Shown here: piece by piece, positions 51,080 to 64,000 of the stretch | How the letters are laid out: each line of letters opens with the position of its first letter | Position numbering within the stretch: position 1 is the first letter of the stretch | Assembly: GCA_015075585.1 (NCBI GenBank) | Contig: JABTUB010000001.1 | Span: 1,914,274 to 1,978,273 of the forward strand | Direction: 5' to 3' | Source: Chloracidobacterium sp. | Lineage (GTDB): Bacteria > Acidobacteriota > Blastocatellia > Pyrinomonadales > Pyrinomonadaceae | Length of the DNA: 64,000 bases | Translations under genes and position numbers: made by a program | Notes under the pieces: generated by a model | Seen by the model: the letters and a program-made list of their open reading frames with translations, nothing else | What the model was told of the DNA's origin: nothing | Databases searched by the model: none

Positions 51080-51136
51080 CAGACGATCGAGCTTCTCCGA
51101 TCTGCGCACCCTTTGATACTATTTATCGACCGATCA

Positions 51137-53518
51137 ATGCTCATGGCGTATTCATTGGAAACTCTTGAATTTGACGCGTTGCTTGAGATCGTTGCAAGCA
51201 ATGCTCAAACGCCGATGGGCGCGCGGCTTATATGTAAACTTCGTCCGTTCGCCGGTCGCCCCGTTCTCGAATCCGCCCTTGCGGCGATAACGGAGGCGAT
51301 CGTTATTAACGAAGAAAGTAAGGTTTCATGGAGCTTCAGCGGGCTGGCCGACCCGTCTGACGCAATCGCTCTTTTGCGGATAAAGAACACCTCGCTCGAA
51401 CCGAATTCATTGCTTGCTATCGCAGATCTATGCTCCCGGGCCCTTTATGCCCGCAGCATCCTGTATCCGGAAAAGGAGAATTGCCCTACACTTTGGCAGT
51501 TGATCGGATCGGTACCGCCGTCGATGCTTGCCGTTACCGAAAATATCCGCAGCATTATCCTGCCCGGCGGCGAGCTCAGCGATGATGCGTCGCCCGATCT
51601 CAAAAGGCTTCGCCGCGAAATTCACGTGCAGCGTTCAAGGCTTACGCACACATTGGAAGCCGCTATGAGAGCCGCCGGTGCTGCGATCCAAGATGAGCTT
51701 GTTACCATCCGCAACGACCGGTTCGTGATACCGGTAAAGACCGATCATCGCGGCAAGGTCAGCGGCGTAGCACACGGATTTTCGTCAAGCGGCCAAACCG
51801 TTTATGTTGAGCCGCTCAACGCCATCGAGGCGAACAATGAACTGCAAAGCCTCAAGAGCCAAGAAGAGCAAGAGGCCGCACGCATCATTTTCAGCCTTAC
51901 GGAATCGCTCCGGGCATCTTTGCCCGAGGTCGAGGCTGCCGCAGATGCGGTCGCTCGGCTCGACGCAGTAAAGGCTAAGGTCGAATTTGCTCGCCGCTTT
52001 AATGCGGTCGTTCCGGAGATAACTGAGAACACACTCAATATAATAGACGCCCGACACCCGCTGTTATTGAATGCCGGCGAAGTCGTGCCGAACACCTTCG
52101 GGTTGACGACAACACAGCCCGTTATGATCATCTCGGGAGCGAATGCGGGCGGAAAGACCGTCGTTCTTAAAACCGCCGGCGCTCTGAGCCTTATGGCGGT
52201 GTCGGGCCTGCCTGTTCCGGCGACCCACGCTCAAATACCGTTCTACCGCTCGATCTTGGCTGATATCGGCGACCATCAATCGCTTTCGGCAAATCTTTCG
52301 ACCTTCTCGTCGCATATGTCGAATATCGCCGGTATGATACGCGAGTGCAGGCCGCCGTCATTAGTACTCTTGGACGAGGCCGGCACCGGAACTGACCCGG
52401 ACGAAGGCTCGGCACTTGGCGTTGCGATCGTCGATCACTTTCGGTCGGCCGGTGCACAGGTGATAGCGTCAACACACTATCGCGGCCTAAAGGTCTATGC
52501 GGCGAATGACGAAGGCGTGATCAACGCCTCAGTCGAATTTGACGAGCGAACGCTGCAGCCCACCTATAAACTCCTGATCGGACAGGCCGGTGCATCGAGC
52601 GGCCTGGAGATCGCAAAGCGATTCGGCATCGCTCAAGACGTGATCGACGCTGCGCGTCGCAACCATGATACTGCAGCACAAAAGCTCGAACACTATCTGC
52701 GTCTTCTGCAAAATGAAACAAAGATCGTCCGCGACACGCGGCTGGCCCTGGAAGAGGAGCGTGAGGTTGTCGCCGTAAAATACGCCTCGATCGAAAATGA
52801 AGCCGCCCAAAAAGAAAAAACTCGCCAAAGAGAATTCGAGGCGGCCCTTGCATCTGCCGTTGATGATTTCGACCGGCAGTCGAAGGCGTTCTTACAAACT
52901 ATAGAGGACAAGGCCCTGAAGAATCGGCTTGAAAAGGAGCGGCGGTCGCGGAAAGCTGAGTTGAACAGGGCGGTGCTCTCCAAGATCGGCCAAACTCCGA
53001 TCCGGCAAGCAGGCCACGAGCGGGACGCCGCCGCGGAGCCTGCATCCTCAGATGCGATAAAGGTCGGCTCCCGCGTTATCACCTCGTTCGGTAACGTAGG
53101 CACGGTTGAGAAATTCGATGGTAAGTTGGCAGAGATCTTGGTCGGCAGCATTCGCCTGCGCGAGAAACTCAGCGATCTGCGTTTTGCGGACACTCCGCCC
53201 AAAAGCGATGTCGGCGAACTGAAAATGAAAAGGCCCGCGAACCCTGCTTTCTCCGTTGATGAGAATCGCAACGCGCCGATCGAGCTGAACCTGATCGGCA
53301 AGACGACCGCTGATGCCGAATACGAGCTTGACCGCTTCATCGACAATGCCTATTTGTCGCACACGCCGCGCGTGCGCATAATCCACGGCTTCGGCACCGG
53401 TGCCCTAAAGAACTATGTCCATCACTTCCTAAAGCAAAGCGACCTCATACGCTCATTTGAATTCGCTCCGCAAGACCAGGGCGGCCACGGTGCCACCATC
53501 GCCGTCATCGATCTGTGA
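51137..53518 (+). CDS. mutS2: Endonuclease MutS2 (MutS domain V + C-terminal Smr)
   Basis: GANAGGKTV Walker A, LLDEAGTGTDP and a C-terminal Smr domain (RIIHGFGTGALK). Start is ATG 51137 or 51143; the ORF extends to a TTG at 51113. Confidence 0.92.
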   Translation: MLMAYSLETLEFDALLEIVASNAQTPMGARLICKLRPFAGRPVLESALAAITEAIVINEESKVSWSFSGLADPSDAIALLRIKNTSLEPNSLLAIADLCSRALYARSILYPEKENCPTLWQLIGSVPPSMLAVTENIRSIILPGGELSDDASPDLKRLRREIHVQRSRLTHTLEAAMRAAGAAIQDELVTIRNDRFVIPVKTDHRGKVSGVAHGFSSSGQTVYVEPLNAIEANNELQSLKSQEEQEAARIIFSLTESLRASLPEVEAAADAVARLDAVKAKVEFARRFNAVVPEITENTLNIIDARHPLLLNAGEVVPNTFGLTTTQPVMIISGANAGGKTVVLKTAGALSLMAVSGLPVPATHAQIPFYRSILADIGDHQSLSANLSTFSSHMSNIAGMIRECRPPSLVLLDEAGTGTDPDEGSALGVAIVDHFRSAGAQVIASTHYRGLKVYAANDEGVINASVEFDERTLQPTYKLLIGQAGASSGLEIAKRFGIAQDVIDAARRNHDTAAQKLEHYLRLLQNETKIVRDTRLALEEEREVVAVKYASIENEAAQKEKTRQREFEAALASAVDDFDRQSKAFLQTIEDKALKNRLEKERRSRKAELNRAVLSKIGQTPIRQAGHERDAAAEPASSDAIKVGSRVITSFGNVGTVEKFDGKLAEILVGSIRLREKLSDLRFADTPPKSDVGELKMKRPANPAFSVDENRNAPIELNLIGKTTADAEYELDRFIDNAYLSHTPRVRIIHGFGTGALKNYVHHFLKQSDLIRSFEFAPQDQGGHGATIAVIDL

Positions 53519-53548
53519 AGCACATTCGCCTCGGTAACTGATTTCCAA

Positions 53549-53580
53549 CAAAAAAGGCCTTCATAACCCTATGAAAGCCT
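53549..53580 (-). terminator. Rho-independent terminator downstream of the tRNA-Pro fragment (may also stop mutS2 read-through)
   Basis: The minus strand reads AGGCTTTCAT-agggtt-ATGAAGGCCT followed by TTTTTT. It starts 8 nt after the CCA end of the tRNA fragment. Confidence 0.55.
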
Positions 53581-53587
53581 CAACAAC

Positions 53588-53636
53588 TGGTCGGGACGAC
53601 TGGATTTGAACCAGCGACCTCTCGCACCCCAAGCGA
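53588..53636 (-). tRNA. Truncated tRNA-Pro(GGG): 3' 49 nt only (anticodon-stem 3' part to CCA); probable att-site duplicate
   Basis: The reverse complement reads TCGC-TTGGGGT-GCGAG-AGGTC-GCTGG-TTCAAAT-CCAGT-CGTCCCG-A-CCA. No D-arm and no 5' acceptor strand (CGGGACG) is present in the adjoining sequence. Confidence 0.75.
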
Positions 53637-53928
53637 TTTGGGTAGGTTTCTATAATTTGTCAAAACTGCTCAAAACTTCTTAGAATCAACAACTTAACGG
53701 CTATCTCAATTCAACACTAATAAGCCATGATCAGCAACGCTGCAACCAACCTGCAACCAAGTTGGCCTATCGCAATCAATGTATCCGAGGCGAGCTATTT
53801 GCCAGAAGGACGGCATTCGCTCGCTCCATCAAGGAGAATATACCATAACCTATCCAATGCCAACCGCTCAATTTTTACTTCCAAGTCTCAACCCGAGGTC
53901 GTCGTCACAGACTCGTCCGTTGGGCCTC

Positions 53929-54633
53929 ATGTCTAATTTTGAAATGATGGAAAACGAGCGTCGGACTGCATCGCTCGTTGATAACATTTCAGCATTCACC
54001 TATTCTGAAAATGGTGTAGTTATGGCTTGTTGTGAGGATGATTGTGCGATAGAGGCGTTGCGGGAGAAGCAGAGTTCGACGCTAAAGATCGTGCTTGGGA
54101 TAAACGTCGTAATGTTTGCCGCGGGTATCGGTGCTGGCATTTACGCGGGTTCGAGTGCTCTGTTGTCCGATTCGCTGGACAATCTTGGCGATGCAATGAC
54201 GTATGGACTAAGCCTTTACGTTGTTTATAAGTCTTCTCAGGCGAAAGCACAGGTCGCTCTATTCAAGGGAGCCTTGATATTGCTAGCGGCTTTGATAGTG
54301 CTCGGACAGGTTATTTATAAATTGATGATTCCGGCGGTTCCGATTTTTGAAGTAATGGGCGTGGTCAGCGTTCTCGCTCTTGTTGGGAATTCGATCTGTC
54401 TTTATCTGCTCACACGACACAAGACGGACGACGTAAATATGAGTTCGGTGTGGGAATGTTCGCGTAACGATATTGCTTCGAATATCTCAGTCTTTGTCGC
54501 GGCCGGTGCGGTTTGGTTCACCCAGTCCGGCTGGCCTGACATTATCATCGCCCTCGCCCTTGTTGTACTTTTCTTGCGTTCGGCTTTTCGTGTCTTTTCA
54601 AACGCAAAGAGCGAACTTAAAACAGCCAATTAA
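53929..54633 (+). CDS. Short cation diffusion facilitator (CDF) family transporter lacking the cytoplasmic C-terminal domain
   Basis: TM2 motif LLSDSLDNLGDAMTYG and TM5 motif WECSRNDIASNISV, six TM helices, ending right after TM6. An N-terminal CCEDDC cluster is present. The start is uncertain (53779, 53857, 53929 or 54022). Confidence 0.8.
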   Translation: MSNFEMMENERRTASLVDNISAFTYSENGVVMACCEDDCAIEALREKQSSTLKIVLGINVVMFAAGIGAGIYAGSSALLSDSLDNLGDAMTYGLSLYVVYKSSQAKAQVALFKGALILLAALIVLGQVIYKLMIPAVPIFEVMGVVSVLALVGNSICLYLLTRHKTDDVNMSSVWECSRNDIASNISVFVAAGAVWFTQSGWPDIIIALALVVLFLRSAFRVFSNAKSELKTAN

Positions 54634-54685
54634 AATAAGAAACCCCGTCTGTTTCCAAACGGGGCTTCCAGTTTTTTAAGGATCT

Positions 54686-55096
54686 TTAGACAGCGGGTGT
54701 GTCTTTCTTTTCCTTATCTTTGTTACAGCAAGAGCAGTCGCAGCTTTTCGCTTCGGTTTTGGTGTCCTTAGCGTCGGCACTTGGGCCGCTAACCGCGTCG
54801 GCTTTCATCTTCATTGGACAAGATGCTCCGTCTGCCATCTTCATTCCGGACATCGTCGCGTGGTCTGATTTCTTCATTGGGCAAGAATCGCCCGTACAGC
54901 AATCACAATCGTCACAGCACGAAGCCGTTTCTTTGCTCGATGTATCTTTTTTCTTCATCGGGCATGAATCGCCACTGCAACAACAGCATGACACTGTCGT
55001 CGCGGACGAAATGGTAGTTCTAGTGAACGCAAATGCCGCAATAGAAAGTCCGAAAACCATCAATGCCGCAATCGCGAGTATCATTTTCCTTTTCAT
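54686..55096 (-). CDS. Secreted Cys/Met/Lys-rich repeat protein (16 Cys; DSCPMK x2 + ASCPMK x1), putative periplasmic metal-binding protein
   Basis: Signal peptide (ILAIAALMVFGLSIAAFA). Cys clusters CCCC, CCDDCDCC and CDCSCC, plus three repeats GDSCPMKKK / GDSCPMKKS / GASCPMKMK. AAGGAA RBS. Confidence 0.65.
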   Translation of the reverse strand: MKRKMILAIAALMVFGLSIAAFAFTRTTISSATTVSCCCCSGDSCPMKKKDTSSKETASCCDDCDCCTGDSCPMKKSDHATMSGMKMADGASCPMKMKADAVSGPSADAKDTKTEAKSCDCSCCNKDKEKKDTPAV

Positions 55097-55182
55097 GATA
55101 TGTGTTCCTTATGTTTAGAAATTATTAGTGCCGCCGAATGCAAAACTGCTCTCGGCATTGAATTGAGACGCTAATCTGCTTT

Positions 55183-55611
55183 CTAAATACGAAAGACACA
55201 GTTCCTTAAAAAGGTTCCATGCCTGTCCTGAACATGCGAGTGTAATGTCGTGAATGTAGGTAAAATACTTGCCGGAGTTGGGGGTGCGAACCTGACCGGC
55301 GAAACCTTCGGAGTTATCGCGACCTGCTCTTGGCCTTGTTCGATCTTTCGGGCTTTGTCGAAAACGGCCTGTAGAAAGCTACAGCACTCTACACGGCTTT
55401 CTCCCTTAAATTCGAAAACTGGACTCTTTTGATCAGCCTTCTTCGCCTTATTGCAATGCTCAGACTTCTTCGCCAAAGGGCAAGAATCTGCAGCCATTGC
55501 TTTCGCATTCATCGTCTGACAGCACAATAAGAATACAACGCCGCTCAACCACACCGCCATGAATCCGGTCAGCGCTTTGTGAACAATTTTATTGAAGTGC
55601 CACAATGCCAT
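55183..55611 (-). CDS. Membrane-anchored protein with DSCPLAKK motif (hypothetical, metal-related by context)
   Basis: 142 aa with an N-terminal TM (GFMAVWLSGVVFLLCC), then ADSCPLAKKSEHCNKAKK, which echoes the neighbouring gene's repeat, and an ECC pair. Confidence 0.5.
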   Translation of the reverse strand: MALWHFNKIVHKALTGFMAVWLSGVVFLLCCQTMNAKAMAADSCPLAKKSEHCNKAKKADQKSPVFEFKGESRVECCSFLQAVFDKARKIEQGQEQVAITPKVSPVRFAPPTPASILPTFTTLHSHVQDRHGTFLRNCVFRI

Positions 55612-55629
55612 AATACAGGTCTGAGAATA

Positions 55630-56250
55630 TCACGAATATGATTTTCGGCAGTAACAATAAATAAACTCCTGCGTAGTGCTGAACGGCGTGTTGTGAATTT
55701 CGGCGAGACTCTCGACGAGCTGAAACGGACGACCGAATTCGTTGTGCATAGTCTCTGGACTGTAACGCATCACGTCGAGGCCGCTGCATTTCTGTGGACC
55801 TTCCAAGCTGAACGACGCAACGATGATATGTCCGTCTGGCTTCAAGCTCCGCATCACGAGCTCGACATATTTGCGACGGTCGTCCTCAGCGGTTAAGAAG
55901 TGAAATACCGCCCTGTCGTGCCACACATCGAACTTCTCGACCGGAAGTTCTGCAGAGGTAACATCAGCGACAAACCAATCCACACCGTTTGCCTTCGCCC
56001 CAAGTCGCTCTTTGCTGCCGTCGATCGCGTTTGCGGAAATATCCAGAACTGAAACGTCGACGAATCCTGAGTCGAGTAGATCGTCAACGAGCGTAGAATT
56101 GCCGCCGCCTACGTCTATGATCGAGGCATCTTTGCCAACACCGGTGTTTGATATCAATCGCATCGATGTGTCGAGATGCTCTCGAAACCAACTCACTTCG
56201 TTGAGGCCTTTTGTCTGATAGACATTTTCCCAATGTTCTTTCCTACTCAT
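55630..56250 (-). CDS. Class I SAM-dependent methyltransferase
   Basis: HWENVYQTK...VSWF N-terminus and SAM motif I IIDVGGGNSTLVDDLL. ATG at 56250; the ORF track begins at a TTG at 56286. Confidence 0.8.
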   Translation of the reverse strand: MSRKEHWENVYQTKGLNEVSWFREHLDTSMRLISNTGVGKDASIIDVGGGNSTLVDDLLDSGFVDVSVLDISANAIDGSKERLGAKANGVDWFVADVTSAELPVEKFDVWHDRAVFHFLTAEDDRRKYVELVMRSLKPDGHIIVASFSLEGPQKCSGLDVMRYSPETMHNEFGRPFQLVESLAEIHNTPFSTTQEFIYCYCRKSYS

Positions 56251-56295
56251 AAGTCTGCTAGCCGGCCTAGGCCGTGACGACAGCAATGATTCTAT

Positions 56296-57426
56296 CTAAT
56301 TAATGAGACCTACCGTCGGACCGATCGGGATCGTCAAAGTAAAGGTCGTTAAGTCTGCCGAACGTTTTGCATTTAAGTGCCCGCCGTGTTGAGTCGCGAT
56401 TTTATGGGCAATTGAGAGCCCGAGCCCTATCCCTTTCTCCTTAGTGGTGAAAAACGGGTCAAAAATCTTTGAGAGATGCTTTGGGTCAACTCCGGAGCCC
56501 GAATCCGTAACCTCGACAATAAAATTGTTGTCGTGCTGAAACGTTCTAAACGTAAGGGTCTGATCTGCCCCGTTCGATTGATTCATTGCCTGCAGTGCGT
56601 TGATAGCTAAATTTAGTACCACCTGCTTTATCTGTTCCGCATCGACGAGAATCAGCGGAAGATTCTTCTGCAAATCTCGAATAACTGCAATTGACTGTGA
56701 TGCCGCCTGGTTTGCAATCAAACCTGTGATTGAGTCCACGATTTCGTTGAGATCAGTTGGCGTCTTAGACGGGGCGACGGGTCGTGCGAATCGTAGAAAC
56801 TCTCCGACCAGCTGGTCCAACCTATCTATTTCACCTTTGGCAAGACCAACAAACTCGCGCCGGGGACTGTCATTCGTTAACTCGTCCTCTAGTATCTCGA
56901 TAGCTCCTTTTATCGACGCCAGGGGGTTTCGGACTTCGTGAACGATGCCTGCTGAGAGTTCTCCGAGCGAGGCCAATTTTTCAGCCTGCAGTAGCTGTTG
57001 AAACGTTGTTTGCAACTCTTCGTAAGCTATTCTCTTTTCCTCCGCATTTCTTTCCGCACGTTCCCTGGATTTACGGAGACGGTCGCCAAGTGCTCCCATT
57101 ATTCCGCCAACGAGATTGAAGATCACAATTTCGGCATATTGGTTTATAGAATAATCAAAATGCCCGTGTTGCCAATGTAAATAAACATGGGGAGAGTAAA
57201 TGATGGTTGTAAAAAGAGATGCCGCAAGCCCGCCTCTGAGACCAAATATCAAAGCGGCAGCTATGATCGGTACGTAGTAGATCCGCTGATAGATCTCGTG
57301 CCAAACAATCTGATCAGTAGGCGTGAGAAAGTGAAGGACCGTAATGAGGATGATGACAACCGCAATGACGATCCAAACATACAAGCGGTTTCGAGGGGAG
57401 ATGATATTGAAGGTTTGCGTATCCAT
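56296..57426 (-). CDS. Sensor histidine kinase with a membrane-embedded N-terminal sensor (no periplasmic domain)
   Basis: Four to five N-terminal TM helices with a His-rich loop (HVYLHWQHGHFD), H-box HEVRNPLASI, and N/G boxes (LAINALQA, DSGSGV, GIGLGLSI). Confidence 0.88.
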   Translation of the reverse strand: MDTQTFNIISPRNRLYVWIVIAVVIILITVLHFLTPTDQIVWHEIYQRIYYVPIIAAALIFGLRGGLAASLFTTIIYSPHVYLHWQHGHFDYSINQYAEIVIFNLVGGIMGALGDRLRKSRERAERNAEEKRIAYEELQTTFQQLLQAEKLASLGELSAGIVHEVRNPLASIKGAIEILEDELTNDSPRREFVGLAKGEIDRLDQLVGEFLRFARPVAPSKTPTDLNEIVDSITGLIANQAASQSIAVIRDLQKNLPLILVDAEQIKQVVLNLAINALQAMNQSNGADQTLTFRTFQHDNNFIVEVTDSGSGVDPKHLSKIFDPFFTTKEKGIGLGLSIAHKIATQHGGHLNAKRSADLTTFTLTIPIGPTVGLIN

Positions 57427-58821
57427 CTATTCGTCCGAGATGCTGGAACCCGACTCCTCTAAACCGTACTTTTGTATGCGATAGATAAGAGCGCTTCGAG
57501 TAATCCCTAAATATTTTGAAGTTTGTGACTGATTGCCGTCATGCCGGAGAAGCGAGGTACGTATGATCTCCCGTTCTAAGGCTTCTAAACTTATCGGCTC
57601 GAAAGGCAGGTCAAACCACAATTCACTCTTCGTCGAAGACGGGTATTTTACGGTTTCCGGGACGTCGGTAAGAGTTAAATTATCGCCGTCCGAAAGGACC
57701 ACCATCCTTTCTACAAGATTCTCCAATTCGCGAACATTCCCCATCCACGGATAATCGAAAAATACCTTGAATACGTCCCGTCCTATCTTTGGCGGTCTCA
57801 TCCCATGTTTTGAAGCCGATCGGGTGACAAAATGTTCGGTCAATACCGGCAAGTCCTCTCGACGCTCCCGCAGCGGTGGCAGCGTGATTGGAACAACCGC
57901 AAGCCGGTAATATAGATCCTCGCGAAAGACATTTTCTTTTATCAGCTCTGGAAGGTTTTCGTTGGTGGCGGCAATTATTCGAGCATCTATCTTGCGCGGG
58001 CTGTTCTCGCCCAAACGTGTCACTTCCTGCTCCTGTAAAACCCTCAAAAGCCTTGTTTGCGATTGCAGAGGCATTGCACTTATCTCATCGAGAAATAAGG
58101 TTCCGCCGTTAGCTTCCTCAAATTTGCCCCTCGATTCTCCTACGGCCCCAGTGAACGCTCCCTTCTTATATCCGAACAGCTCTGCCTCGATTAGCGTCTC
58201 GGGAATAGCGGCACAGTTGATGGCGACAAAAGGTTTGTTTTTGCGGGTGCCGGAAAAGTGTATTCCTTTTGCGACCAACTCCTTCCCTGTTCCGGTCTCG
58301 CCTTCTATCAATACTGTTACATTTGTTTTTGACACTCTCTCAACCAGGTCAAAAACTTGCAGCATCTTTTCTGATGTTCCGACAACGTTCTCGATCCGAA
58401 ATTCCTCGTGAATCTGACGTCGCAGTCGGCGATTCTCCGCCAAGGCCGTGCCGTACTTTAATGCTTTCTCTACGGTGAGCAAAATCTCCTGTCGGTTGAA
58501 GGGCTTGGTAATAAAATCAAAGGCCCCACCACGCATAGCTTCGACCGCTGTATCGACATCTCCAAACGCGGTAATAACAATGATCGGTACTTCGCTGTTG
58601 ATCGCTGTTGCCTGCTGAACCAGCTGTGATCCAGATATTTTCGGCATTCGCCAATCGGTGATCACGCAGTCAACTTCCTCGGCCGAGAACAACTTGAGTG
58701 CATTACGTCCATCGCTCTCACTCATGACGACGTAACCAGCCTCGCTAAGTTGGAATTCGAGAACCCGACGCAATGAGTCGTCGTCATCAACTAGTAGAAT
58801 TTTGGCCGCAGACTTTGTCAT
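57427..58821 (-). CDS. Sigma-54-dependent Fis-family response regulator (NtrC/ZraR-like)
   Basis: REC domain (KILLVDDDD...DWRMP), AAA+ motifs (GETGTGKE, GAFTGA, ELFGY) and a C-terminal Fis HTH. Abuts the kinase gene. Confidence 0.92.
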   Translation of the reverse strand: MTKSAAKILLVDDDDSLRRVLEFQLSEAGYVVMSESDGRNALKLFSAEEVDCVITDWRMPKISGSQLVQQATAINSEVPIIVITAFGDVDTAVEAMRGGAFDFITKPFNRQEILLTVEKALKYGTALAENRRLRRQIHEEFRIENVVGTSEKMLQVFDLVERVSKTNVTVLIEGETGTGKELVAKGIHFSGTRKNKPFVAINCAAIPETLIEAELFGYKKGAFTGAVGESRGKFEEANGGTLFLDEISAMPLQSQTRLLRVLQEQEVTRLGENSPRKIDARIIAATNENLPELIKENVFREDLYYRLAVVPITLPPLRERREDLPVLTEHFVTRSASKHGMRPPKIGRDVFKVFFDYPWMGNVRELENLVERMVVLSDGDNLTLTDVPETVKYPSSTKSELWFDLPFEPISLEALEREIIRTSLLRHDGNQSQTSKYLGITRSALIYRIQKYGLEESGSSISDE

Positions 58822-58894
58822 GTCGATCTTATCTTAACGCAAACACCCATACAGTGCCCCGTCAAACATGTACGGCTCTTAACACTAGGAAATG

Positions 58895-59032
58895 TCATCC
58901 CTTCCCGCAACCGCAATCGTCGCCGCAGCTGGGTTTTGGGGAGAAGGCACGGCTTTTCTGAACCAGCGTTTTCGCGGCGAAGATAATCGCTCCAAGAATG
59001 ATTACGATCACAATGAAGTATTGAAGATCCAT
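58895..59032 (-). CDS. FeoB-associated Cys-rich membrane protein-like small ORF (45 aa), not in the supplied ORF track
   Basis: My own translation is MDLQYFIVIVIILGAIIFAAKTLVQKSRAFSPKPSCGDDCGCGKG. It has one TM and a C-terminal C-x3-C-x-C cluster. GAGGA lies 6 nt upstream of the ATG. It fills the gap between the DUF4198 gene and the response regulator gene. Confidence 0.6.
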   Translation of the reverse strand: MDLQYFIVIVIILGAIIFAAKTLVQKSRAFSPKPSCGDDCGCGKG

Positions 59033-59054
59033 AGAACGTCCTCAAACCGCAAGG

Positions 59055-59861
59055 TTACTTGATCTCAAAAGTCAGCGTCGTCCATTTTGATTCGTAATTT
59101 AGTTTCGGGTCGTCGATTTTGACCATGTTGATAAACTTCACGAACCATTTACCGGATCCGTCAAGCTTCAACTTTACGAAGCCGTTCGCGTCGCTTCTTA
59201 GTTCGGGCGCGGCCTTTACTTTGCCGCTTTCCTCGCGTCCGGCGAGCACGATTTGATTCGCAAGCGGTTTACCGTCTTTTAGACATAGGATATCGATCGT
59301 GTCGCCCTTTTTAAGCTTGTAAGGATTCTGCTGTGGAACTAGTTCGACCGGGTAGCCAAGGACGGTTTTGTAATCGTCCGAATGCTTGTTGCCTACCTGC
59401 ATAATCGCTTTAACATGTTTTGCGTAACGTTCTACTGCATCCTTTTCGAGTTCGCCGGTCTTGCGGCGTTCTTCAAGCGTATCCGGCAGGCCGTCTTCGC
59501 GGAGATACTCGTTAAAATCTGCTGCTTTTAGAGCGATCTCTCGCGGTTTGGTCGACAGTCCGACGACGTAGGTTCCAGCCGCACCGGTTGTCAGATTTAG
59601 AAATGCAGTCGTTTCGTCCTTGGTGAGATCAGCCTCCACTGGATGTATGCGATTCCCACCCGAAACGACGCTCACATCATTTAGCCGGGCAAAGCTAACC
59701 GCTCCTTCGCTCGCCAAAAACGTTCCGTTCATTACCTTCACGGTAAATTTCGAGTTAGCCTTCAGAAAATAGCTATCCGTCTTAAGAAACAGATCGTGCG
59801 CGAAAATGGACGCAACGAGCGACAGCGATAACATAATTGTAAAAATTGTTTGTTTCTTCAT
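59055..59861 (-). CDS. DUF4198-like periplasmic metal-binding protein, paralog B
   Basis: The signal peptide ends in ...SIFA|HDLFLK (His at mature position 1). Central transthyretin-like block GDTIDILCLKDGKPLANQIV. GAGGAG RBS before the ATG at 59861. Confidence 0.75.
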   Translation of the reverse strand: MKKQTIFTIMLSLSLVASIFAHDLFLKTDSYFLKANSKFTVKVMNGTFLASEGAVSFARLNDVSVVSGGNRIHPVEADLTKDETTAFLNLTTGAAGTYVVGLSTKPREIALKAADFNEYLREDGLPDTLEERRKTGELEKDAVERYAKHVKAIMQVGNKHSDDYKTVLGYPVELVPQQNPYKLKKGDTIDILCLKDGKPLANQIVLAGREESGKVKAAPELRSDANGFVKLKLDGSGKWFVKFINMVKIDDPKLNYESKWTTLTFEIK

Positions 59862-59874
59862 TTCGATCTCCTCG

Positions 59875-60684
59875 TTACTTGATTTCAAATGTCAGCGTCG
59901 CCCATTTTGATTCGTAATTCAGTTTTGGGTCGTCGATCTTTACCATATTGATAAATTTGGCGTACCATTTGCCGGCGCCGGTCAGTTTGATCCCGAGCAG
60001 GCCGTCCTTGTCGGTGCGGGAGCTTGTTTCGCCGAGCATTTTGCCCGCGGCCTCGTAGCCGGTCGTTACTATCTGGCCCACAAGGGGCTTCCCATCCTTG
60101 AGACAGAGGATGTCAAGCGTGGCTCCCTTTTTTAGTTTGTAGGGGTTTTGCTGAGGGATCATCTCCACGGCGTATCCAAGGTTGGTTTTGTAGCTGTCTG
60201 TCGGTTTATTGCCCGCCTGAAAGATCGTTTTGACATATTTCGAATAACGGTAACGGGCGTCTTTGTCGAGTTCGCCGTCGCGCTTTCGGTTTTCCAGAAT
60301 ATCAGGGATGCCTTCGGCGGGCAGGTACTCATTGAATTCCTTTGCCGCGAGTGCGTTCTCGCGCCACGAGGTGGAAAGGCCGACGACGTGGGTTCCGGCC
60401 TCGGTCGGCGTAACATTGAGAAATGCGGTGGTTTCATTTTTTGTAAAATTCGCCTCGGCAGGATTCGAACGCGTGCCCGAAGGCGAAACAACGCTCACAT
60501 CCGTCAAACGCGCGAACGCCACCGCTCCCTCGCTTTCCTGAAACGTGCCGTTCATCACGCTGATAGAGATCTTCTCGTTGACCTTTACAAAAAAGCTCGC
60601 TGGCTTTAAGAAAAGGTCGTGTGCAAAGACCGACAGGGTCGTCAAAACCACCATCATTGCGAAAAAAATGATCTTTGTTTTCAT
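59875..60684 (-). CDS. DUF4198-like periplasmic metal-binding protein, paralog A
   Basis: ...SVFA|HDLFLK and GATLDILCLKDGKPLVGQIV. By eye about 60% identical to paralog B, with near-identical C-termini. GGAGGA RBS. Confidence 0.75.
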   Translation of the reverse strand: MKTKIIFFAMMVVLTTLSVFAHDLFLKPASFFVKVNEKISISVMNGTFQESEGAVAFARLTDVSVVSPSGTRSNPAEANFTKNETTAFLNVTPTEAGTHVVGLSTSWRENALAAKEFNEYLPAEGIPDILENRKRDGELDKDARYRYSKYVKTIFQAGNKPTDSYKTNLGYAVEMIPQQNPYKLKKGATLDILCLKDGKPLVGQIVTTGYEAAGKMLGETSSRTDKDGLLGIKLTGAGKWYAKFINMVKIDDPKLNYESKWATLTFEIK

Positions 60685-60697
60685 ATGTCCTCCAGTT

Positions 60698-61354
60698 TTA
60701 TCTTAGGCATTTGTGCAATCTTATGGTTCCGAACACGCTATTGAAATGAACCGTTTCCTCGACGAATGTAAACCCGGCATCCGTTATCAGTTTGGGCAAT
60801 AAGCCATTGAAATTATCTGCAGTCGTTTCAAAACCGTCCAGAAATTGAATCAGATATGACGCCCCGCGCATTAAACGACTCGTGGGCAGCCCCCAATCTG
60901 CGACATGAAACTCGCCATCGGGCTTAAGAACGCGGTTTACTTCGCGCAGCGTTTCCGACTTGCTTTCCCGAGATAGGTGATGAAAAAAAAGGCTGGAAAC
61001 AATCCGGTCGAAGGATTCGTCTTCGTAAGGCAGATCAAACGACATTCCCTCGTCGAAGGTAATGTCAACGCCGGCCTTGTGTGCCTTCTTTTTTGCTATC
61101 TGTAAGATCTTCGCGTCACCGTCAATCCCGACAATCACAGCGTTCGGCTGCTTCTGTTTCAACAAAATAGATAGCGTCGCTGTGCCACAGCCTAAATCCA
61201 GAGTGCGATGACCATCGGCGATCCCGGCTTGATCAACTAACGCATTCTTGAAAGCGCCTTCGCGAGTCGTCAGAGCAACTACCGGATCATATAGGCCCGT
61301 TAGCCAATCGTAGCTCAAAGCCGGTATGTACTTTTCGTTGTTCATTTCTCTCAC
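60698..61354 (-). CDS. Class I SAM-dependent methyltransferase (UbiE/Methyltransf_11-like)
   Basis: SAM motif [13 protein letters not shown] and motif post-I GIDGD. The GTG at 61354 overlaps the ATPase stop; an alternative ATG lies at 61345. Confidence 0.8.
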
Positions 61355-63888
61355 AATTTCAAATTTCTTAACCGCAGTGCATTGACGATTACCGAAACAG
61401 AACTAAAAGTCATTGCTGCACTCGCGATCATCGGACTTAGTAACAAGCCGAAAACGGGATATAGAACTCCCGCAGCGATTGGGACGCCGACGAGATTGTA
61501 GATGAACGCGAAGAACAAGTTTTGACGTATATTTTTCATCGTCGCTTCGCTCAGCTTTTTCGCCCGTAAAATACCGCGCAGATCGCCTTTCAAAAGCGTT
61601 ATATCAGCGGATTCCATTGCTACGTCGGTTCCGGTGCCCATTGCGATGCCGACTTGGGCTTGAGCAAGCGCCGGAGCATCGTTTACGCCGTCGCCGGCCA
61701 TTGCGACGATCTTGCCGCTCGCCTGTAGCTCTTTGATCTTTTCCGCCTTTTGTTCGGGCAAAACGTCGGCGAAAACCTTGTCGATGCCGAGCTTTTTGGC
61801 TACTGCGTCGGCCGTAATTGCATTATCGCCCGTCATCATGACGACTTCGATATTTTGTCTATGCAGTTCGTCGATTGCTTCTTTCGCAGACTCTTTGATC
61901 GTGTCCGCGACGCCGACCAGTCCGGCGGGTTTCCCGTCAACGGCTACGAACATTACTGTTTGCCCTTCGGCTCGAAGCTCATCGGCTTTTCCATCCGCCG
62001 GGAAATCAATATTGTTGTCCGTCATCAGCTTCGCATTGCCCAGTAACACTTTTTGCCCGTCGATCGATCCCGTGATTCCTTTACCAGTGATGGATTCAAA
62101 ATCGTCCACCTTTGCCAATTCGATATTTTTCTCTTCGGCGCCTTTTATGATCGCTTCCGCAAGCGGATGCTCGCTCGATCTTTCCAGACTGGCAGCGAGC
62201 CGCAATAGTTCGTTTTCCGTAATTCGTAATCCGTAATTCGTAATTGTGCTTTGCAAACGCGGCTTGCCCTCGGTCAAAGTGCCTGTCTTATCAACAACTA
62301 TTGAATTCACCTTTTCCAGAATCTCCAATGCCTCGGCTTTCTTAACCAATACGCCGTGCCGCGCTCCGTGTCCCGTGCCGACCATGATCGACATCGGCGT
62401 CGCCAGGCCCAAAGCACACGGGCAGGCAATGATCAGAACCGAAACCGCCGCGACCATCGCGTAGGCGAAACTGCCGAAGATCATCCAGACGGCGAACGCG
62501 ACAATCGAAACGACGATAACTGCGGGAACAAAATAAGCTGATACTACATCTACCAATCGTTGGATAGGAGCTCGGGAGCGCTGGGCCTCGCCGACCATCC
62601 GAACGATTTGCGCGAGCAGCGTGTCGCTGCCGACCTTTTCCGCTTTCATCACAAAGCCGCGTCTGCCATTGATCGTTCCGCCGATGACCGTGTCGCCGAC
62701 CGTCTTTTCGACCGGGATCGATTCGCCCGTCACCATCGACTCATCGACCGAAGTATCGCCTTCCAGGATCGCTCCATCGGTCGGGATTTTTTCGTTCGCC
62801 TTAACTCTCAATCTCGCACCCATCTGTACATCCTTGAGTGCAATCTCAGCCTCGGTGCCGTCGTCGAAAACAACGATCGCGGTTTCAGGTGCAAGTCCGA
62901 GAAGGGCCTTGATCGCGCTTGAGGTTTGGCTTCTGGCTCGAAGCTCAAGAACTTGTCCGAGAAGAACGAGCGTCGTGATCACTGCCGCCGCTTCGAAATA
63001 TGCGGCGATCAGGCCCGTATGCACATTACGCATCGACGCAGGGAACAGATCAGGCAGGAACAGTGCGAAGAGGCTAAAGAGATAAGCCGCTCCTGTTCCT
63101 ATCGCGATCAGCGTGAACATATTCGGGCTCACATTCTTGACCGAAGCCCATCCACGCTGGAAGAAAGGAAAACCGCCCCAGAGCACGACCGGCGTCGCAA
63201 GAGCGAACTGTATCCAAATAGAAAGGTTCGGCGAGATTATCTCGTGAAAGTTCGGCAGCATTTCCGCCATCGCCAGAGCGAAAACCGGAAGAGTTAAGAC
63301 GGCGGAAATCCAAAAACGCCGCTTCATATCGATATACTCCGGGTCAGGAGCGTCGTCGAGCGTCATCACCTTGGGCTCAAGCGCCATTCCGCATTTTGGA
63401 CAGCTTCCCGGACCGATCTGCACAACTTCCGGATGCATCGGGCAGGTGTACTCGACACCCTTGCTTTCCGCGTCTAATACTTCCTCTTTTTTCTCCTTGA
63501 GAAAGCTCGTCGGATTTTGTTTGAACTTATTCAAGCAGCCGGTCGAGCAGAAGTAATAAGTCTGGCCCTCAAAATCATACTCTCCCGCCGAAGTCTCGGG
63601 CTCGACCGTCATTCCACACACCGGATCGACAAACTCTCCTTCGGGAGTAGCGTTCATCTCTCCATGCGTAACGGTTTCTTTTTGTTCCCGTCCGATCCCG
63701 ACAAAACCACTCCCGGGGACGGCCTGCGTTTGCGCGATAAATTTCTGCAAACAGCCTTTCGAGCAAAAATAATAGGTCGTTCCCTCATGCTTAAAACTTC
63801 CAGCCGCTGTCGCCGGATCAACAGTCATACCGCATATCGGGTCGATAAACTCGCCCTCTGCTGCGTTCTTTTTTACAATTCCTGTCAT
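61351..63888 (-). CDS. copA: Heavy-metal (Cu+/Ag+-type) translocating P1B-type ATPase with two YHS/TRASH modules and one YTCPMHPE module at the N-terminus
   Basis: CPC motif ([11 protein letters not shown]), DKTGTLT, SEHPLA and GDGVNDAP. The N-terminus carries DPICGMTV...[20 protein letters not shown]...[12 protein letters not shown] and [36 protein letters not shown]. Confidence 0.93.
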
Positions 63889-63916
63889 GAACCCTCCCTG
63901 CGGTTTTCAAACTTCC

Positions 63917-64000
63917 CTAGTTGCCGCAACAGCTCGCCTGGCTACCGTCGTTCGGAGCCATGAATTTCTGCAGACACGCTGTCGAGCAGAAATAATAAGT
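63917..64000 (-). CDS. YHS/TRASH-domain protein, C-terminal 27 aa only (truncated by the window edge)
   Basis: My own translation of the minus strand is ...TYYFCSTACLQKFMAPNDGSQASCCGN*. It has the same YYFCSxxCLxKF signature as the ATPase N-terminal modules. Confidence 0.6.
   Translation of the reverse strand, partial: TYYFCSTACLQKFMAPNDGSQASCCGN

Follow-up and report, generated by a model that had tools for sequence, protein, structure and literature searches.

Half a tRNA gene stands next to mutS2 in a Chloracidobacterium sp. genome; what put it there? The stretch of DNA analyzed here (the window, 64,000 nt, C1:1914274-1978273) belongs to a genome assembled in two contigs, C1 and C2 (2.97 Mb, 98.5% complete). 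A 49-nt sequence on its minus strand (53588-53636; C1:1967861-1967909) reads, from 53636 to 53588, TCGC-TTGGGGT-GCGAG-AGGTC-GCTGG-TTCAAAT-CCAGT-CGTCCCG-A-CCA, and corresponds to a tRNA-Pro(GGG) from 4 nt of the anticodon stem to the CCA. On the same strand, the DNA 5' of this fragment ends in ...GACAAATTATAGAAACCTACCCAAA and has no tRNA character. An earlier note, made from the sequence of the window, had taken the fragment for a likely att junction of an integrated element lying to its right. Related records used for comparison are labelled Acidobacteriota: Pyrinomonadaceae, Blastocatellia or 'Chloracidobacterium sp.' MAGs.

ARAGORN called no tRNA anywhere in the window, as the earlier note had expected for this locus. 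The Rfam tRNA model scored the fragment at 14.8 bits, against a gathering score of 29, and no complete cloverleaf was found. Over its 49 nt the fragment does not differ from the 3' half of an intact, native tRNA-Pro(GGG) gene in a relative (G013), so the match to a tRNA is not due to chance; this identity and the sequence itself bear out the description of a clean 3' portion without a tRNA-like 5' part. Directly downstream is an intrinsic terminator (53545-53581, minus strand), with a 12-pair hairpin (stem 53581-53554) followed by the T-run TTTTGTTGGA. It was the single site in a terminator scan, and its hairpin folds at -19.3 kcal/mol (z = -3.5). The hairpin and T-run had been noticed earlier, with a spacing of 8 nt after the CCA; counted to the 12-pair stem, the spacing is 6 nt. 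This is probably the native terminator of the tRNA gene, on the B' side.

The earlier note also predicted that an intact tRNA-Pro and an integrase lie beyond position 64000. The sole intact tRNA-Pro(GGG) gene of the genome is located at C2:1083-1159 (minus strand), beyond ~4 kb of contig 1 and the assembly gap that follow the window. It matches the fragment at 46 of 49 nt and lies on the same strand, the combination of an intact tRNA gene and a cognate fragment in the same orientation by which Islander defines an island. Past the tRNA, in its direction, come a strong terminator, a TTGGTTGCAGGTTGGTTGCAG motif, an 84-aa ORF and, 530 nt from the tRNA, an integrase ORF; chromosomal MerR and AIR-synthase-like genes lie upstream. 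The second copy of the 49-nt sequence was thus found inside an intact tRNA-Pro gene next to an integrase, on the side foreseen. The prediction stands for the tRNA and, as far as the N-terminal 184 aa that are present can tell, for the integrase; contiguity across the gap is unproven.

The 84-aa ORF has an HTH_17 ('excise') domain that scores above the NCBIfam excisionase-domain cutoff, and would encode an excisionase (Xis). The integrase ORF has a Phage_int_SAM_5 N terminus and is cut off after 184 aa by the contig start. Tyrosine recombinases are defined by a catalytic domain with Arg...His-x-x-Arg...Tyr, and the catalytic half of this gene lies outside the assembly. Its ortholog in a related genome (G020) matches those 184 aa at 92% identity and is full-length, with 355 aa and a PF00589 domain (E = 4.6e-22); aligned with PDB entry 5c6k, the G020 protein covers H-x-x-R and the stretch that contains the Tyr. 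At E <= 1, the N-terminal 70 aa of the integrase showed no arm-binding domain.

Contig 1 stops inside an RND pump gene, contig 2 opens inside the integrase gene, and all four contig ends are different partial genes. Where contig 1 ends and contig 2 begins, there is neither overlap nor a continuous reading frame, so the assembly lacks the interior of the element. When metagenome contigs were scanned for exact matches to the first 40 nt of contig 2, none turned up. The orientation of the att sites is consistent only if contig 2 comes after contig 1 as given, an order that GC skew permits but does not prove; the skew keeps its sign on passing from C1 to C2, and it allows either orientation of contig 2.

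Rightwards of the fragment, the ~125 nt that we assign to the P arm of the attachment site (53637-53765, minus strand) are conserved in alignments with the islands of G020 and a second relative, G137. This arm contains a tandem TTGGTTGCAG-G-TTGGTTGCAG repeat (53740-53760, minus strand). The 21-mer occurs exactly twice in the 2.97-Mb genome, once within each att site: at 104 nt inward from the fragment and, on contig 2, at 48 nt downstream of the intact tRNA. Both the P and the P' arm align among our genome, G020, and G137, with the tandem repeats at identical positions and spacing. The TTGGTTGCAG repeats may be arm-type sites that bind Int or Xis.

The first cargo gene, for a CDF (cation-diffusion-facilitator) efflux protein (PF01545), lies at 53779-54633 (plus strand). 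Further island cargo, recognized by Pfam matches, collinearity and a drop in GC content, occupies 54686-64000 (minus strand) and continues beyond the window for another 4 kb, where contig 1 ends. Within the window, Pfam identifies, after the CDF gene, two hypothetical proteins, a methyltransferase, a histidine kinase, a sigma-54 response regulator and two DUF4198 proteins, then another methyltransferase and a P1B-type ATPase with YHS/HMBD modules; past the window follow MerR, DUF305 and SnoaL proteins and a CzcA-like RND pump truncated by the contig end. The GC content falls from ~0.56 in mutS2 to ~0.48 at the junction, and is ~48 to 50% in the island, against ~55%. The cargo is collinear with the islands of G020, G137, and a third relative, G141, at 80 to 98% identity. 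Identity of the island DNA to G020, G137, G141, and G016 is 80 to 99.5%, compared with 67 to 73% for the flanking core genes. Together with the low GC content, this marks the DNA right of the fragment as foreign, on the side where the earlier note had put the element.

With high probability, the half tRNA marks attR, one junction of an element that a tyrosine integrase inserted into tRNA-Pro(GGG). The matched arms, the integrase module and the foreign DNA on the right all support the att junction proposed in the earlier note. In the mechanism that we favor, an integrative element would have entered the tRNA-Pro(GGG) gene by tyrosine-integrase recombination at the anticodon stem-loop, with TCGC-TTGGGGT-GCGA, a 7-nt loop between inverted stem halves, as the core. 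The element would have brought its own copy of the tRNA 3' half, completing the gene at attL (contig 2, 1083-1159). The native 3' half and native terminator would have been pushed to the far end of the element as attR; the fragment at 53588-53636, which has the native T-arm allele GCTGG/CCAGT, would comprise the attR core and the native 3' part of the gene. From 53637 rightwards the element would then run through the ~125-nt P arm with its tandem TTGGTTGCAG repeats into metal-efflux and sensing cargo. Its other end, on contig 2, would comprise the integrase and excisionase-like HTH genes, a P' arm in which these repeats recur, and finally the tRNA gene that integration restored.

Between fragment and tRNA, identity begins with TCGC (4 nt of the stem) in the class to which our element belongs and with the TTGGGGT loop in a sister class. 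It extends from the anticodon stem-loop through the 3' end, as in an anticodon-centred attP (site A), and agrees with the view of the earlier note that such a duplicate is left by tyrosine-recombinase elements that cross over in the anticodon loop. In G020, the T-arms of attL (GTGAG/CTCGC, the element allele) and attR (GCTGG/CCAGT, the native allele) are wholly different, so crossover took place 5' of the T-stem. These comparisons would place the crossover point in the anticodon loop.

Relatives provide both states of the target. The site is empty in G014, where a five-gene block leads straight into tRNA-Pro and MerR. In G020 and G024 it is occupied: the same block abuts a tRNA-Pro fragment, and an island lies between the fragment and the intact tRNA. 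The G020 element resembles ours more closely (Int, 92%, and Xis, 95%, at the protein level; cargo, 80 to 93% at the DNA level) than do the flanking core genes (67 to 73%). Dense clusters of 5 to 10 tRNA genes are found a few kilobases from tRNA-Pro(GGG) in relatives, on the MerR/AIRS side (G024 L032:17348-17849, G016 L142:141-2157); there is none at the corresponding place in our genome.

In G137 (the same genome as G087) and G141, cargo 89 to 98% identical to ours and the same integrase type are found in single-contig units of 124.6 and 122.5 kb, respectively. Both units are bounded by tRNA-Pro cores, with arms paired as in our element. We defined an ICE by the presence of a relaxase, a type IV coupling protein and a VirB4-type ATPase within a bounded element. 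The G137 unit has all three (MobP/MobL relaxase, VirD4-like and VirB4-like proteins) and is therefore an ICE; it also encodes a Strawberry-notch-type helicase and an MmeI restriction-modification enzyme. By comparison with these homologs, our element is probably an ICE of ~120 kb with an unassembled interior. No T4SS or relaxase genes lie in the 15.5 kb of our copy that are assembled, and the sole T4CP of the genome is in another, diverged ICE-like region; the capacity of our element for conjugation is suggested by the G137 homolog.

Contigs from G016 are 99.5% identical to positions 53637-62672 of the window, yet the mutS2 gene of G016 is only 78% identical to ours. The G016 island contigs end in a fragment followed by the P' arm of another element. 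Island identity at this level points to recent mobility. The family is specific for its target: among 63 related integrase copies with upstream flank, 59 are beside a tRNA-Pro(GGG) gene or fragment, 37 of them at 350 to 650 nt from an intact gene and 22 by a fragment, in tandem arrays; the remaining 4 are by neither. Next to the integrase in G020 (L030:4808-12128) are genes for a 1,166-aa protein with Prok-E2, ThiF (E1), JAB and patatin matches and for a 1,265-aa protein without a Pfam match. The pair looks like a ubiquitin-like-conjugation defence module, judging from these domain matches.

The outer flank of the fragment has a history of its own. The gene mutS2 (51113-53518, plus strand; Pfam MutS_V and Smr domains) is chromosomal, abuts the outer att side and lies outside the element. 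The earlier note had suggested looking for relatives in which mutS2 is followed by an intact tRNA-Pro; this arrangement was not found. In 11 relatives no tRNA was found closer than 1.5 kb to mutS2, and in G110, G109, G013, G096, and G014 the gene leads directly into dnaG, with a spacing in relatives of 0 to 21 nt and no terminator. The tRNA-Pro gene of relatives adjoins a different locus, the five-gene block. Given the mutS2-dnaG order of the sampled relatives, the mutS2 neighborhood in our genome is a lineage-specific rearrangement and not their ancestral flank.

A distance of ~4.8 kb separates our dnaG gene (C1:1373645-1375561) from the five-gene-block orthologs (C1:1380308-1386444). In G014, both ancestral adjacencies are present on one contig, ~700 kb apart and in the required orientation. 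A single inversion of ~590 kb would explain the exchange of partners among mutS2, dnaG, the block and tRNA-Pro, and we regard such an event as likely. Its right breakpoint would fall between the mutS2 stop codon and the tRNA terminator, at ~53519-53545, and it could have occurred before or after integration. The inverted segment straddles the GC-skew switch at ~C1:1.64 Mb nearly symmetrically; skew is thereby preserved and does not discriminate. Inverted repeats common to both breakpoints amounted to chance matches of 10 to 14 nt. The dnaG/block junction (C1:1375561-1380308; L049:3562-8342) contains five ORFs without counterparts at the corresponding loci of relatives, encoding ScdA/hemerythrin, DUF7009, PLP-decarboxylase, MFS and hemerythrin proteins.

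Att sites on different contigs are compatible with one element, a tandem array, and a rearranged remnant alike. Tandem arrays are common in the family (the 22 of 63 integrase copies by a fragment; the arrays in G137, G141, and G016), the assembly has a gap with no contig overlap, and the likely large inversion would end immediately beside the fragment; all three would suit an orphaned att remnant, in which the island on contig 1 is decayed or immobile and has been split from the integrase and attL by rearrangement, or a gap that hides the fragments of an array. We nevertheless consider this improbable, as the 98.5%-complete genome has only a single fragment, a single intact tRNA-Pro(GGG), and a single integrase and Xis of this family, the two arms match each other as in the single-contig elements of G137 and G141, and the cargo ORFs are intact and 97.5% identical to G137 through the last base of the contig. 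With a single element as the preferred reading, both contig ends would belong to it.

A spurious mutS2-fragment junction, created in assembly by misjoining an island from a co-occurring population, is very unlikely. The reciprocal dnaG/five-gene-block junction is found 590 kb away on the same contig, so that two matching misjoins would be needed, and the breakpoints share no repeat. A misjoin could be suspected in a two-contig assembly of an uncultured-type lineage, the more so as the G016 island contigs are 99.5% identical but have a different outer flank; the fragment, however, has the native T-arm allele and a unique terminator, unlike the G016 copy. The chimeric T-arm of the intact tRNA, described below, could be a consensus error and would also fit such an artefact. 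A decayed tRNA pseudogene arising by local duplication without any mobile element is scarcely credible: the bare presence of a partial tRNA is all that recommends it, and it is effectively refuted by a sequence that is the native allele with zero decay, a boundary exactly at the anticodon stem, the two-copy arm repeat, and an adjacent P arm and arm repeats conserved with mobile islands of other genomes.

One feature of the regenerated tRNA gene (C2:1083-1159; L004:1083-1159, minus strand) is not what a simple anticodon-loop crossover predicts. Its T-stem pairs GCTGG, from the native allele, with CTCGC, from the element allele, giving a U.C mismatch. The gene scores 54.5 bits with the Rfam tRNA model, compared with 63 to 65 bits in relatives, and is predicted to have lost the T hairpin; a mispaired T-stem is seen in none of 68 distinct copies from relatives. 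The attR site is fully native, so reciprocal crossover does not explain the chimera. Possible sources are gene conversion from attR, a short-homology deletion in a former tandem array, or a consensus error. We tentatively suggest that integration was not neutral. Because a simple crossover in the anticodon loop cannot yield the chimera, the sole GGG tRNA-Pro would have become chimeric, and possibly impaired, by gene conversion between attR and attL or by a second recombination in the T-loop. The same tentative reading makes tRNA-Pro(GGG) a genus-wide hot spot, at which elements of ~25 to 125 kb, including metal-resistance ICEs, would pile up in tandem and pass between species.

Insertion of an island into a tRNA gene is a common and well-understood way in which bacteria acquire DNA. 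The feature is of this ordinary, well-known kind, and the element itself is a newly found case; as the mechanism is textbook, its value lies in annotation and ecology, not in concepts. The finding gives an exact left boundary (53636/53637) for a horizontally acquired metal-resistance island, would link the two contigs, and flags roughly 100 kb of mobile DNA that is probably missing. It also reveals an integrative, probably conjugative family specific for tRNA-Pro(GGG), in which near-identical metal-efflux cargo appears to have moved between species of an uncultured Acidobacteriota (Pyrinomonadaceae-type) genus.

Short core sites in the target, arm-type sites and an excisionase together make up the lambda Int/Xis system. 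Our element likewise has a short core in its target, direct repeats in the P and P' arms at fixed distances, and a small HTH excisionase-like gene next to int. Compared with lambda, the TTGGTTGCAG repeats are putative arm sites, and the N-terminal 70 aa of the integrase gave no match to a known arm-binding domain. Large ICEs that target tRNA genes include ICEclc (tRNA-Gly) and the Mesorhizobium symbiosis island (tRNA-Phe). In elements of this type, recombination takes place at the very 3' terminus of the tRNA gene and leaves repeats of 17 to 18 bp. Our element family resembles them in size (~100 kb or larger), a tRNA-proximal integrase, adaptive cargo, and a T4SS/coupling/relaxase backbone, features that are seen in the G137 homolog. 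It differs from the ICEclc type in duplicating 45 to 51 nt, from the anticodon loop on, in an integrase that was not P4-like in the tests run, and in that the conjugation genes are outside the assembled part of our copy. For the ICEclc family, see PMC10732049.

Among the 3,919 islands of the Islander set, 3,760 have a 3' fragment and 2,083 are anticodon-centred (PMC4383910). The same source describes the anticodon-centred attP as the commonest kind of tDNA island and the displaced fragment as a general rule (PMC4383910). Anticodon-centred islands are its site 'A', following the sublocation classes of Williams 2002 in the form in which PMC4383910 cites them. Our element resembles these islands in having a putative tyrosine integrase gene beside the regenerated tRNA, and a 3' fragment that was displaced to the far end and keeps the orientation of the tRNA. 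Identity beginning at the anticodon stem-loop and the occurrence of tandem arrays are further common features. Unlike the Islander set, it combines an Acidobacteriota (Pyrinomonadaceae-type) host, tRNA-Pro(GGG) as the target, ends on two contigs, and an outer flank probably replaced by inversion.

A second ICE-like region is found outside the window, at C1 ~1,167,000-1,310,000, with 65 to 72% identity to the ICE backbone of G137. It contains the T4CP gene (C1:1185486-1186706) and a weak integrase-like match (C1:1298577-1298966). We considered whether the part at C1:1.17-1.24 Mb, which is collinear with the interior of the G137 unit (65 to 72%), is core chromosome. Pfam shows a conjugation backbone there, which rules this out and identifies a second, diverged ICE-like region in the genome. 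G137 has a different tRNA-Pro element as well, whose cargo matches C1:1248392-1262056 at 93.7% identity. At the other contig ends, the start of contig 1 (C1:1-180) lies inside the C-terminal part of a ThiC-like gene, and a complete ThiC-like gene is present at C2:~984500-985700, near the end of contig 2; these paralogs may explain the assembly break between the start of C1 and the end of C2.
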